Source of the DNA: Enterobacteria phage vB_EcoM_IME540
DNA: 64,000 bases
Reading direction: 5' to 3' (one strand)
Sequence record: MT150133.1
Shown: positions 1 to 62,203 of the stretch, piece by piece
Layout of the letters: the number at the start of each line of letters is the position of its first letter
Position numbering within the stretch: position 1 is the stretch's first letter
The notes under the pieces: generated by a model
What the model saw: only the letters and a program-made list of their open reading frames with translations
What the model was told of the DNA's origin: nothing
Databases searched by the model: none
Made by a program: the position numbers and the translations under genes

Positions 1-253
1 TCAATTTAGGATTACGCAGAATAGCTCTACGAGCATTTTCAACCGACCGGTTAAAGAGTTGTTCGGCTTCAGCCATAGTAATACGACCATTGCAAACTCG
101 ACCCATAAGCTTATCAAGTTCAGCCCGAGCAACATCTTTAGAAGGATTCTTAGTAATCAATTGGCCAATACCAATAGTATAGTATCCCTCAGTATCCTTA
201 TATAAGTCTAATTTACAGCCTTCATCAAGGCGTAACATATCAAAAATATCCAT
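1..253 (-). CDS. e: T4-type endolysin (lysozyme), N-terminal 84 codons only; gene continues past window start
   Basis: Minus-strand ATG at 253-251 gives [35 protein letters not shown]..., matching the T4 lysozyme N-terminus as recalled; frame open to position 1. Confidence 0.9.
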
Positions 254-284
254 AATACCTCCTGAGTATAGGAGGTATTTATAT
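254..284 (-). promoter_or_regulatory. Late promoter TATAAATA (plus 277-284) followed by a 9-bp inverted repeat (254-262 / 270-278) that pairs the e Shine-Dalgarno AGGAGG with CCTCCT
   Basis: Minus strand reads TATAAATACCTCCTATACTCAGGAGGTATT-ATG; same arrangement as the known T4 e-gene SD-sequestering hairpin. Confidence 0.7.
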
Positions 285-733
285 CAAAAGAGCGAGTCTA
301 AAACCTTAAACATCGACGGGCCCATGACATATTCCCATTGAGGTCGTTTAATCAAGGCGAACGCATCGAATTCAGGAATAGTACGACCCTCAGGGAATGT
401 ATGGTAAGCCGTACATTTGCAATCCTTGAACTGCTCGTGTTCCACAGGCACCGTATATAAGAACAGATGTAGATTCTTATTGCTTGAATATTTGAACTCA
501 CCTAGGTCTTTCAGGAATGCAGGATCGTATGCTGTGAATCCAATCTCTTCTTCGGTTTCGCGCATTGCCGCTTGAATAGGCTCTTCGCCTGGTTCGACAT
601 GACCTTTAGGAATGTCCCATTTATGACGCATATTCTCTGGATTACGAGAGCCTGTTACACGACCCATGACCAGTTCTTTATCAACGGTCATGAATAAAAT
701 ACCTGCCGATAATTCCTTAGCTTTCTTACTCAT
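284..733 (-). CDS. nudE: Nudix hydrolase
   Basis: 150 aa from ATG 733-731 (RBS GGAACGAGACG upstream); Nudix box GHVEPGEEPIQAAMRETEEEIGF; same position as T4 nudE next to e. Confidence 0.85.
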   Translation of the reverse strand: MSKKAKELSAGILFMTVDKELVMGRVTGSRNPENMRHKWDIPKGHVEPGEEPIQAAMRETEEEIGFTAYDPAFLKDLGEFKYSSNKNLHLFLYTVPVEHEQFKDCKCTAYHTFPEGRTIPEFDAFALIKRPQWEYVMGPSMFKVLDSLF

Positions 734-2468: not shown

Positions 2469-2505
2469 TTTATTCTCCATTTCACTCTGTTGTTTTGATA
2501 GGTCT

Positions 2506-2534
2506 ATAGTATCACACCTATAGACCTTGTACAC
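2506..2534 (-). promoter_or_regulatory. sigma70-type early promoter cassette (-35 GTGTAC, 17-bp spacer, -10 TACTAT) with 10-bp inverted repeat AGGTCTATAG/CTATAGACCT
   Basis: Minus strand ...GTGTACAAGGTCTATAGGTGTGATACTATAGACCTATCAAAACAACAGAGTGAAATGGAGAATAAA-ATG. Confidence 0.55.
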
Positions 2535-6949: not shown

Positions 6950-7025
6950 AGTATTTCCTTCAGTTGGTTGATATTTTGTAATCCATGAGGACATTATACC
7001 CTGTCCTCTGAGGTTTGTAAACATT

Positions 7026-7424: not shown

Positions 7425-7449
7425 TATGTTCTCCTCAAATTATGGGCTC

Positions 7450-7479
7450 ATAATATCTTAATCATGAGCCCATGTAAAC
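7450..7479 (-). promoter_or_regulatory. early promoter (-35 GTTTAC, 18-bp spacer, -10 TATTAT) inside inverted repeat TGGGCTCA/TGAGCCCA
   Basis: Minus strand GTTTACATGGGCTCATGATTAAGATATTATGAGCCCATAATTTGAGGAGAACATA-ATG. Confidence 0.5.
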
Positions 7480-7781: not shown

Positions 7782-7810
7782 ATAGTATCATGTTTAAAGG
7801 AGGTGTAAAC
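7782..7810 (-). promoter_or_regulatory. early promoter cassette (-35 GTTTAC, 17 bp, -10 TACTAT)
   Basis: Minus strand GTTTACACCTCCTTTAAACATGATACTATAGACCTATCAAAACAACAGAGTGAAGGAGAGTAAA-ATG. Confidence 0.55.
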
Positions 7811-8795: not shown

Positions 8796-9461
8796 TCAAA
8801 ATTTTATTTTACGGCCTTTATTCCAACCTTCAGGAATAATATCCGTTTTGTTAATACGTTTAGAAACTTTTTCTTCTAAAGAATGAATCCACATTTTTCC
8901 ATATCCGGAATTATTTTCACCTTGTTGGTGTTTATTTCTGGCGTGAGATTCTTTCATTTTATTTTTGGTTTCATCTGAATGGGTCTTACCCAAGAAAGAT
9001 TTAGTATTTGAAAATTTCTCTCTATACTTAGGATTATCCCAAAGTTGTTTAAACCTTTCCGAACCCATTTTACGATATTTTTCTTTAAGGTCTGGGTCGT
9101 TCTCAAATCTGGTTTTAAAAGCGGCAACTCCTTTTAAGGAAGCTTCTTTCTTTTTATCTAAATATTCTTCAGTGTTTAAATGGTCCCAACCACCTTCACC
9201 ACCTAATTTCAAATTATAAACATCAGGGCGCTTTAAAAACTCTTCAGTCACAATATTCTTTTCTGACTCAAACATAGAGGTTTTATCGTCAAAGAACTCT
9301 AATATTTCTTTAGAGAAATTTTCTATACCGTATTTGACCTGGGCCCTTTTTAAGAGTTTACCAGAACCAAAATATGCATCATTCAAATTTTCGGTTGAAT
9401 GGGCGCCTATATAGATTTTATTATTAATTTTGTTTGTTATTTTATAAGTGTAATGGAACAT
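8796..9461 (-). CDS. segB: GIY-YIG homing endonuclease, segB-like, inside the tRNA cluster
   Basis: 221 aa; N-terminal YKITNKINNKIYIGAHST...GSGK motif; basic NUMOD-like C-terminus; RBS AGGAGA; same position as T4 segB. Confidence 0.8.
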   Translation of the reverse strand: MFHYTYKITNKINNKIYIGAHSTENLNDAYFGSGKLLKRAQVKYGIENFSKEILEFFDDKTSMFESEKNIVTEEFLKRPDVYNLKLGGEGGWDHLNTEEYLDKKKEASLKGVAAFKTRFENDPDLKEKYRKMGSERFKQLWDNPKYREKFSNTKSFLGKTHSDETKNKMKESHARNKHQQGENNSGYGKMWIHSLEEKVSKRINKTDIIPEGWNKGRKIKF

Positions 9462-9502
9462 AAATATCTCCTATTTCTAAGAGTATTTATGTTCTCAAAA
9501 TA

Positions 9503-9851: not shown

Positions 9852-9903
9852 CTCAAATAAAATTAAGTAAAGTAAGTTTGATTAATAGACCTTGTCTATT
9901 ATG

Positions 9904-9929
9904 AAAGGTTCTTTGAGGGAAGAACCTTT
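9904..9929. other. 10-bp-stem hairpin AAAGGTTCTT-TGAGGG-AAGAACCTTT in an intergenic region
   Basis: Perfect inverted repeat in 170-nt noncoding stretch 9852-10019. Confidence 0.4.
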
Positions 9930-10019
9930 GGTAATAGAGGGTATTAATGATAGAGTAATAATAACACATTACTCTTAAAGCATATTACTATTTTTAGGAA
10001 TAGTCTGGTCAAATTTGAT

Positions 10020-10939: not shown

Positions 10940-10969
10940 ATAGTACCATCACTAAAGCCCGTTGTAAAC
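10940..10969 (-). promoter_or_regulatory. early promoter cassette (-35 GTTTAC, -10 TACTAT) with inverted repeat GGGCTATAG/CTAAAGCCC
   Basis: Minus strand GTTTACAACGGGCTTTAGTGATGGTACTATAGCCCTATCAAAACAAATGAGTGATTGGAGAATAAA-ATG. Confidence 0.55.
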
Positions 10970-11470: not shown

Positions 11471-11507
11471 TTTGATTTCCGTTTGGTTAGTTTGTTTTGA
11501 TAGGTCT

Positions 11508-11536
11508 ATAGTATCATGCCTATAGACCTTGTAAAC
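11508..11536 (-). promoter_or_regulatory. early promoter cassette (-35 GTTTAC, 17 bp, -10 TACTAT) with 10-bp inverted repeat AGGTCTATAG/CTATAGACCT
   Basis: Minus strand GTTTACAAGGTCTATAGGCATGATACTATAGACCTATCAAAACAAACTAACCAAACGGAAATCAAA-ATG. Confidence 0.55.
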
Positions 11537-14511: not shown

Positions 14512-14948
14512 CCTAATTTTTTCAGTGAGTTTTCGGTAATCAATCTGAAATTAATTCCCATTTTATCTGCTGTAGCTTTAGCAGCTTTCCATTTATCTTT
14601 ATTTACACTCCATGTATAATGTTCGTTGATATATCTCTTTTTAGCAGCTGTAGTCATTTTAGCAGGCGCCGCTGGAGGATGGGTCTCTTTAAAAGGTTTG
14701 ACTTCGAAAAAGAATTGTTGACCATTGTCGAACTTCACCCAGAAGTCCATAAAATACCGACGTTTCTTTCCATCAGCGTTACTAAAATATGGAATCACAA
14801 CCTCTTCCGAGTTCCACTGGACGACATTAGGATGGTTATCAAGCCAACGCATAAGCCATGCTTCCCAAGAGGAACGATATTGGATTTTCTTCCAATCACC
14901 TTTATATTTTTGTAAGTTTGTAGGTTTAAATTTCCCTGAGTAGGCCAT
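14499..14948 (-). CDS. 4: gp4 head completion protein
   Basis: 149 aa [29 protein letters not shown]..., matches T4 gp4. Confidence 0.85.
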
Positions 14949-14958
14949 AGTGCCTCCT

Positions 14959-14966
14959 TATAAATA
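14959..14966 (+). promoter_or_regulatory. late promoter TATAAATA for gene 53
   Basis: Exact T4 late consensus 28 nt upstream of ATG 14994. Confidence 0.6.
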
Positions 14967-14973
14967 TTAATAT

Positions 14974-14981
14974 TATTTATA
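14974..14981 (-). promoter_or_regulatory. late promoter TATAAATA for gene 4 (divergent)
   Basis: Exact consensus on minus strand upstream of gene 4 start at 14948. Confidence 0.6.
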
Positions 14982-14993
14982 CTCGGAGGCACT

Positions 14994-15596
14994 ATGCTCT
15001 TCTCATTTTTCGATCCCATCGATTACGAATCAAAAACAGTCAAGCCAGATTCCGGCTCATTAACTGATGCCGATGTACTGAGCGTACCGATGACTGATAT
15101 ATTTAGAAACTATAAAGAATATTTTGATAAAGTGGCTAAAAATTATACACTTAAAACATATTATATCAGTGGGGCCCCTCGTCCAGAAGAATTAGCCCAT
15201 CAACTTTATGGTAACGTGCAATTATATTGGGTCCTTTTAATGTGTAACAATATCTATGACCCTTATTACGGCTGGATTACAGGCCAAGAATCTGCGTATC
15301 AAGCAGCTATTCAACGTTATGCTACTGCAGGCGGAAACCAAGTCCTTTATCATGTCAATGAAAAGGGTGAGAAATTCTGGAATCTAGTAAATACTCCGGA
15401 AAATCCTTATACTTGGTACGATAAAGGTGATACAGAAAAACGTTATCCTCAATATGAAGGTCCTTTGGCTGCAGTAGATATTTACGAGGACGCCATTCGT
15501 AAAAATGAATATAAGCGCGAAATAAAGATTATAGACCCTAATGACATCGAGTCCTTTGTTTCCGCTTTAATTAGAGAAATGGAGAAGTCACTCTAA
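14994..15596 (+). CDS. 53: baseplate wedge protein gp53
   Basis: 200 aa MLFSFFDPIDYESKTV...PMTDIFRNYKEYF...YWVLLMCNNIYDPYYGWIT, matches T4 gp53. Confidence 0.85.
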   Translation: MLFSFFDPIDYESKTVKPDSGSLTDADVLSVPMTDIFRNYKEYFDKVAKNYTLKTYYISGAPRPEELAHQLYGNVQLYWVLLMCNNIYDPYYGWITGQESAYQAAIQRYATAGGNQVLYHVNEKGEKFWNLVNTPENPYTWYDKGDTEKRYPQYEGPLAAVDIYEDAIRKNEYKREIKIIDPNDIESFVSALIREMEKSL

Positions 15597-62175: not shown

Positions 62176-62203
62176 CAAAAAAGGAGAGCGTACGCTCTCC
62201 TTT
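62176..62203. terminator. bidirectional terminator AAAAAA-GGAGAGCG-TA-CGCTCTCC-TTT
   Basis: Perfect 8-bp stem flanked by an A-run and a T-run between convergent genes. Confidence 0.65.

Follow-up and report, generated by a model that had tools for sequence, protein, structure and literature searches.

An intact T4-type late promoter and hairpin, probably a translational lock, at the lysozyme gene e of a Dhakavirus genome

In phage T4, early RNA reads through into the lysozyme gene e and, by folding into an inhibitory structure, lowers lysozyme synthesis about 100-fold (McPheeters et al. 1986, NAR 14:5813, as summarized in the text of PMC3014915). The same review (Uzan & Miller 2010; Fig. 5A) states that the e leaders of close T4 relatives are similar, with a late promoter located in each case where the 5′ strand is encoded, and describes the e genes of the Aeromonas phages 44RR, 25, 31 and Aeh1 as being without such a structure; JS98-type phages are not named in that text. 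The same device has been described at T4 segB, I-TevI, I-TevII, I-TevIII, 49 and soc, and at Aeh1 mobE (PMC2988022, PMC3014915). Common to these genes is a late RNA that is made without the 5′ strand of the hairpin hiding the ribosome-binding site, but they differ from e in that they are different genes, with unrelated hairpin sequences. Because both the mechanism (T4, 1986) and its conservation (2010 review, PMC3014915) are in the literature, the finding reported here is already known.

The DNA analyzed here, a stretch of 64 kb (hereafter the window), derives from a Dhakavirus, i.e., a JS98/QL01-like relative of T4. Bases 1-1,600 match the Dhakavirus genomes E33, QL01, MX01, Bp7, IME08 and JS10, with an identity of up to 95.8%, and the matching records label this stretch e or endolysin, nudix hydrolase, and e.2. 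The minus strand of the window begins with the 5′ part of e (1..253, with the ATG at 253-251); the gene exits the window at its left end, and thus 84 codons are present. This fragment matches the Pfam family Phage_lysozyme, PF00959 (30.6 bits versus a cut-off of 22.3; E = 4.7e-7), and, over its 84 residues, shares about 67% identity with the lysozymes of T2 and RB32. Directly upstream, on the same strand, lies nudE (e.1), a Nudix hydrolase gene (284..733; Pfam NUDIX, E = 7e-15), in the order known from T4, e-nudE; read-through of nudE would bring the left arm of the hairpin described below into the e mRNA. Beyond nudE there follow tightly packed minus-strand ORFs, then a tRNA-Arg gene, a segB-like gene and a tRNA-Met gene. 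The identified genes follow one another as in T4, namely e / nudE / e.2-e.8 / RNAs / tRNA-Arg / segB / tRNA, with e.2-e.8 matched by position only. By similarity and gene order, the window gene is the ortholog of T4 e, in a T4-like nudE-e neighbourhood. A search of positions 1-1500 against Rfam found no family at E <= 1.

The e leader (window 254-284) is carried entirely by the minus strand, whose bases 300-231 read TAGACTCGCTCTTTTGATATAAATACCTCCTATACTCAGGAGGTATTATGGATATTTTTGATATGTTACG. The nudE stop codon, TGA (286-284), adjoins a T4-type late promoter box, TATAAATA (283-276), which in T4 is gp55-dependent. The left arm of the hairpin, AATACCTCCT (279-270), is complementary to the Shine-Dalgarno sequence and was identified by sequence, by a repeat finder and by folding. 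A 6-nt loop, ATACTC (269-264, read directly from the sequence), separates it from the right arm, AGGAGGTATT (263-254), which contains the Shine-Dalgarno sequence AGGAGG at 263-258, as the first-pass annotation had proposed, and ends one base short of the AUG. The start codon of e (253-251) is therefore just outside the stem, and the helix stops beside it. The same annotation had described a perfect inverted repeat of 9 bp with the late box directly upstream of its left arm. The repeat is indeed perfect, but it is 10 bp long (279-270 / 263-254; repeat I15, with 10-nt, 100% complementary arms 6 nt apart), and the box, although present at 283-276, does not precede the arm but overlaps it, by 4 nt, or by 3 nt if only 9 bp are counted. 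With the box set directly against the nudE stop codon, box and hairpin together take up the whole of the 30-nt intergenic space.

The T4 e leader (NC_000866), TTTATAAATACCTTCTATAAATACTTAGGAGGTATTATG, is the closest described counterpart. The two leaders have an identical right arm, AGGAGGTATT, followed by an ATG at equal distance, and in both the upstream TATAAATA overlaps the 5′ arm at an equal position and distance. The stabilities of the hairpins are also similar (-13.3 kcal/mol in T4 and -14.1 kcal/mol in the window). The suggestion that this arrangement is the one known from T4 is thus borne out by the orthologous gene, the nudE-e synteny, the common right arm and the position of the late box. 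What differs is local only. T4 has two late boxes, the second of which, again TATAAATA, lies in a loop of 8-10 nt, whereas the window has one box and a 6-nt loop; the T4 stem includes a G.U pair (CCUUCU), whereas the window stem is perfect over 10 bp; and the predicted T4 helix covers the AUG, which in the window lies just outside the helix. Together with the preceding T270, the loop of the window hairpin reads TATACTCA, which by its sequence is a decayed counterpart of the second late box in the T4 loop.

The folding energetics were assessed both for a read-through RNA and for the predicted late RNA. For the 41-nt segment the folding energy is -14.1 kcal/mol (z = -3.3), which none of 200 dinucleotide shuffles equals; in contexts of 70 nt and 140 nt, too, this hairpin is the centroid structure. 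In a read-through RNA from -60 to +20, the predicted probability that the Shine-Dalgarno sequence is unpaired is 0.013. These calculations agree with the first-pass claim that read-through RNA would hide the Shine-Dalgarno sequence. In T4-type late promoters, the box TATAAATA occupies positions -13 to -6 relative to the start (PMC1524935), and by this rule the predicted late +1 is position 270, which would leave 1 of the 10 left-arm bases in the transcript. With the start thus predicted at T270 or A269, the late RNA would be without the left arm, in line with the earlier proposal that late transcripts begin too close to the gene to include it. The structure of the late leader is predicted to have just -3.7 kcal/mol, on a par with shuffled sequence, and its Shine-Dalgarno sequence is predicted to be unpaired with a probability of 0.20, a value that reflects a weak alternative pairing retained in the late leader. 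A strong site for the RegB endoribonuclease was also considered in this region and rejected. The consensus of such sites is GGAGRAYARAA (PMC3014915); GGAGGUAUUAU matches 2 of the 7 trailing positions, and its GGAG is predicted to be paired in the early RNA.

About 1,485 phage records contain an e homolog; conservation of the device was assessed with e loci gathered from IMG/VR (21 loci) and from named phages. They yielded 13 distinct leaders from at least seven genera of Tevenvirinae: Tequatrovirus (T4), Dhakavirus, the Gaprivervirus type, Karamvirus (CC31), Moonvirus (Merlin), Jiaodavirus (JD18) and Kanagawavirus (KLB31), along with EcS1, VR5 and IMG/VR contigs. The window leader itself is identical in several sequenced Dhakavirus genomes (loci L001, L002, L004 and L005). 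The octamer ATAAATAC is invariant in all 13 leaders and is preceded by T, A or G, a variability of the first base that has been published for the late promoters of T4 relatives (PMC1524935). Each leader was folded separately, anchored on the late box and the ATG, in place of an RNAalifold alignment. In 13 of 13, a hairpin of 7-12 bp (-9.0 to -14.1 kcal/mol) includes the Shine-Dalgarno sequence, the predicted +1 leaves 0-4 bases of the left arm, and the predicted early accessibility of the Shine-Dalgarno sequence is 0.09 or less. That this control device is conserved, as had been stated from the window sequence alone, is thus confirmed by the recurrence of box, anti-Shine-Dalgarno arm and hairpin in every leader of this set.

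The sequences of the stems show how pairing is kept. In the Gaprivervirus type, CCUCCU/AGGAGG becomes CCCCU/GGGGG, i.e., a U-A pair is exchanged for C-G and pairing persists, while in EcS1 both arms are one base shorter than in the CCUCC/GGAGG type (ACUCC.../...GGAGU). To a common core of 5 bp, the T4, Dhakavirus and Gaprivervirus types add pairs on the AUG side (AAUA/UAUU), and the CC31, Merlin, KLB31 and EcS1 types add them on the loop side (UAUC/GAUA, UAUA/UAUA). The persistence of the hairpin through changes that vary from genus to genus speaks for selection on the structure. Covariation in the strict, two-sided sense is sparse, amounting to one clear compensatory pair plus compensation by indels and extensions, and the Shine-Dalgarno arm is also constrained by its own function. 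RNAalifold, applied to a MAFFT alignment of 12 leaders, found no compensatory pair, and its 5-pair consensus at -0.38 kcal/mol is meaningless, because the leaders agree neither in stem register nor in loop length. Neither box nor hairpin was found at e in the Aeromonas phages 31 and AS-gz and in two Justusliebigvirus genomes. The survey thus reproduces the pattern of Uzan & Miller 2010 (PMC3014915).

An early RNA that reaches e would come from the minus-strand genes upstream, where closely spaced ORFs extend from about 8,400 to 284. A terminator scan found no minus-strand terminator-like site below 11,300, including the interval between 254 and 2500. The nearest candidate early promoter, of the sigma-70 type and with a PeSL-like stem-loop, lies at 2500..2534 on the minus strand (A-rich upstream region, GTGTACA and TGATACTAT). 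Judging from these consensus matches and from the lack of a terminator-like site in between, it is a probable source of early transcripts reading into e. A consensus scan of the same strand also identified early-promoter-like sites with a stem at 6993-7022, 7442-7479, 10940-10969 and 11502-11536, and one without a stem at 7782-7810. Such early-type sites consist of an A-rich upstream region, GTTTACA and an extended -10 element. At the stem-bearing sites, an inverted repeat spans the spacer and the -10/+1 region, with folding energies of -12.6 to -20.1 kcal/mol; its arms vary in sequence (GGTCTATAG/CTATAGACC twice, GGGCTTTAG/CTATAGCCC, GGGCTCAT/ATGAGCCC and GAGGACA/TGTCCTC). These sites are similar to the PeSL promoter/stem-loop cassettes known from T4-type phages (PMC2839356, PMC4122927), but in the window the stems overlap the promoter itself.

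The hairpin could instead act mainly as a terminator or attenuator of early nudE transcription, such that early RNA never reaches e and the overlap with the Shine-Dalgarno sequence is incidental. Its location directly after the nudE stop codon fits this proposal, and stem-loops of T4-type early regions (PeSLs) have been reported to be efficient terminators without classical U-runs (PMC2839356). As an intrinsic (rho-independent) terminator, however, the hairpin was rejected: rather than a G+C-rich stem with an immediate U-run, it has G-C at 4 of its 10 pairs and is followed by AUUAUGGAUAUUUUUG, with no U-run adjacent, and the terminator scan reports no site at this position. In T4, moreover, early RNA does run into e, according to the text of PMC3014915, and termination leaves unexplained why 13 of 13 leaders have an anti-Shine-Dalgarno left arm with an overlapping late box. 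We therefore consider it improbable that termination is the main role of the hairpin, although it could coexist with a translational lock as a minor effect.

Alternatively, the palindrome might function at the level of DNA, as a protein operator at the late promoter rather than as an RNA device. It does overlap both the late box and the start site, and I-TevI represses its own late promoter in an operator-type manner (PMC2988022). Lysozyme, however, is not a DNA-binding protein, and the sequence and register of the palindrome shift between genera while its pairing with the Shine-Dalgarno sequence persists. Drift in register with pairing kept fits an RNA helix and not a fixed protein site, and an operator is, in our view, highly improbable.

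We also asked how often such features arise within the window. Perfect hairpins with a stem of at least 10 bp and a loop of 3-12 nt occur 6 times, versus 0.87 +/- 0.99 expected from first-order Markov simulations, and a single hairpin of this kind somewhere in 64 kb could be due to chance. A hairpin located exactly on the Shine-Dalgarno sequence, with a late box on the opposite arm, is not. Among 62 candidate gene starts, that of e has the lowest Shine-Dalgarno accessibility, and its fold from -40 to +5 is among the most stable. The box TATAAATA is enriched in the window (20 copies versus 7.6 +/- 2.7 expected), where it mostly precedes late structural genes on the plus strand. That a strong Shine-Dalgarno sequence and a late promoter merely coincide with a chance complement, without any role in regulation, is hardly credible: about 0.9 perfect 10-bp hairpins are expected per 64 kb, and the CCTCC...GGAGG palindrome of genes 4 and 53 (see below) arises merely from two opposed Shine-Dalgarno sequences, but there is no divergent gene at e, the box of e is the only one among 27 [T/A]ATAAATA boxes in the window with an anti-Shine-Dalgarno CTCC within 12 nt downstream, the device is conserved with compensation in at least seven genera, and T4 provides an experimental precedent (in the text of PMC3014915).

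We thus favor, with a probability of about 0.88, the interpretation that this Dhakavirus leader is orthologous to the translational lock of T4 gene e. Orthology, geometry, predicted folding and comparative evidence support this interpretation, while for the actual 5′ ends, the early read-through and the effect on translation we argue by analogy with T4. Early in infection, host RNA polymerase would transcribe the minus-strand early genes, i.e., nudE and those upstream of it, and continue into e. The read-through RNA, containing both arms, would form the 10-bp hairpin, burying the Shine-Dalgarno sequence up to the AUG; with this sequence buried, binding of 30S subunits would be blocked and no lysozyme would be made early. 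After replication begins, the late apparatus (gp55/gp33/gp45 in T4) would recognize TATAAATA at 283-276 and start transcription at about 270. The resulting RNA, without the left arm, would leave the Shine-Dalgarno sequence free, and lysozyme would be translated. Such a lock would keep the lysis enzyme off early read-through RNA and make its synthesis depend on late transcription; such timing through the choice of the transcript 5′ end is a textbook example of temporal control. The intact Dhakavirus copy is one more confirmation of this principle and alters no open question. Its practical use lies in annotation, where a late box can be entered at 283-276 with a predicted start at about 270, and e would be regarded as a late-translated gene within an early transcription unit.

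The window contains a second leader of this design. A segB-like homing endonuclease gene of the GIY-YIG/NUMOD3 type (9461-8796, minus strand) lies between tRNA-Met and tRNA-Arg, and its leader (9456-9494), GAACATAAATACTCTTAGAAATAGGAGATATTTATGTTC, has perfect 11-bp arms, the left of which contains a late-type box, CATAAATA. Here the right arm covers the AUG, whereas at e it covers the Shine-Dalgarno sequence. Over 9456-9494 the leader is identical to that of T4 segB, for which the arrangement is known (PMC2988022). A loose pattern search of IMG/VR (ATAAATA-CYYCT-loop-AGGRGK) returned at least 120 stretches; the set is no census, and the pattern itself in part presupposes a hairpin. Among the matches listed, 6 are e loci, and the same design also stands before GIY-YIG endonucleases and an endonuclease VII gene. 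A near-identical motif, TATAAATACCTCTAGGAAACTAGGGGTATTTTTTTATGG, recurs in the IMG/VR contigs L034, L036, L045, L066, L070, L083, L097, L098, L119, L133 and others; it combines a late-type box overlapping a 12-bp hairpin with a subsequent U-run, which is terminator-like, and an ATG. The L070 copy precedes an ORF of 267 aa without a Pfam hit.

At the e locus of two sibling phages, the hairpin has been lost. Escherichia phage 04086, a Dhakavirus (L033, 1595-2347), and phage TH15, a Gaprivervirus (L154, 601-1350), each carry a gene for a MobD-like HNH/NUMOD3 endonuclease of 250 aa that fits precisely between the late box of e and its ATG, in place of both arms and the Shine-Dalgarno sequence of e. 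The endonuclease is 38.5% identical to T4 MobD, and relatives at least 90% identical to it were found in only these two records. The late box persists, 5 nt ahead of the endonuclease ATG (TATAAATACCCGTATG and AATAAATACACATATG), a spacing that predicts a leaderless late mRNA, and the e ATG lies within the 3′ end of the endonuclease gene. The e gene of 04086 begins with Gaprivervirus-like codons (MNIFEML), a resemblance that suggests co-conversion following homing between genera. Since these two phages lost the hairpin to the insertion, the lock is not indispensable in every genome. Beyond its role as a lock, the 30-bp module of promoter plus hairpin might be a preferred entry point for mobile genes, a notion that we regard as doubtful. 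If it were true, the intact module of the window would represent an uninvaded target allele, and the timing of lysozyme could be rewired without a hairpin, e.g., by coupling to the predicted leaderless endonuclease message.

At 14948-14996 of the window, 45 nt separate the divergent late genes 4 (minus strand, with a TnsA-like N-terminal domain) and 53 (plus strand, PF11246), and two opposed TATAAATA boxes lie between their opposed Shine-Dalgarno sequences. A naive fold makes both of these sequences look sequestered. Because each late start is inside the palindrome, neither late RNA would have the complementary arm. Two further inverted repeats were recorded, one at 9895-9938, with 19-nt arms of 89% complementarity and a 6-nt loop, and the other at 62180-62203, with perfect 12-nt arms and no loop.
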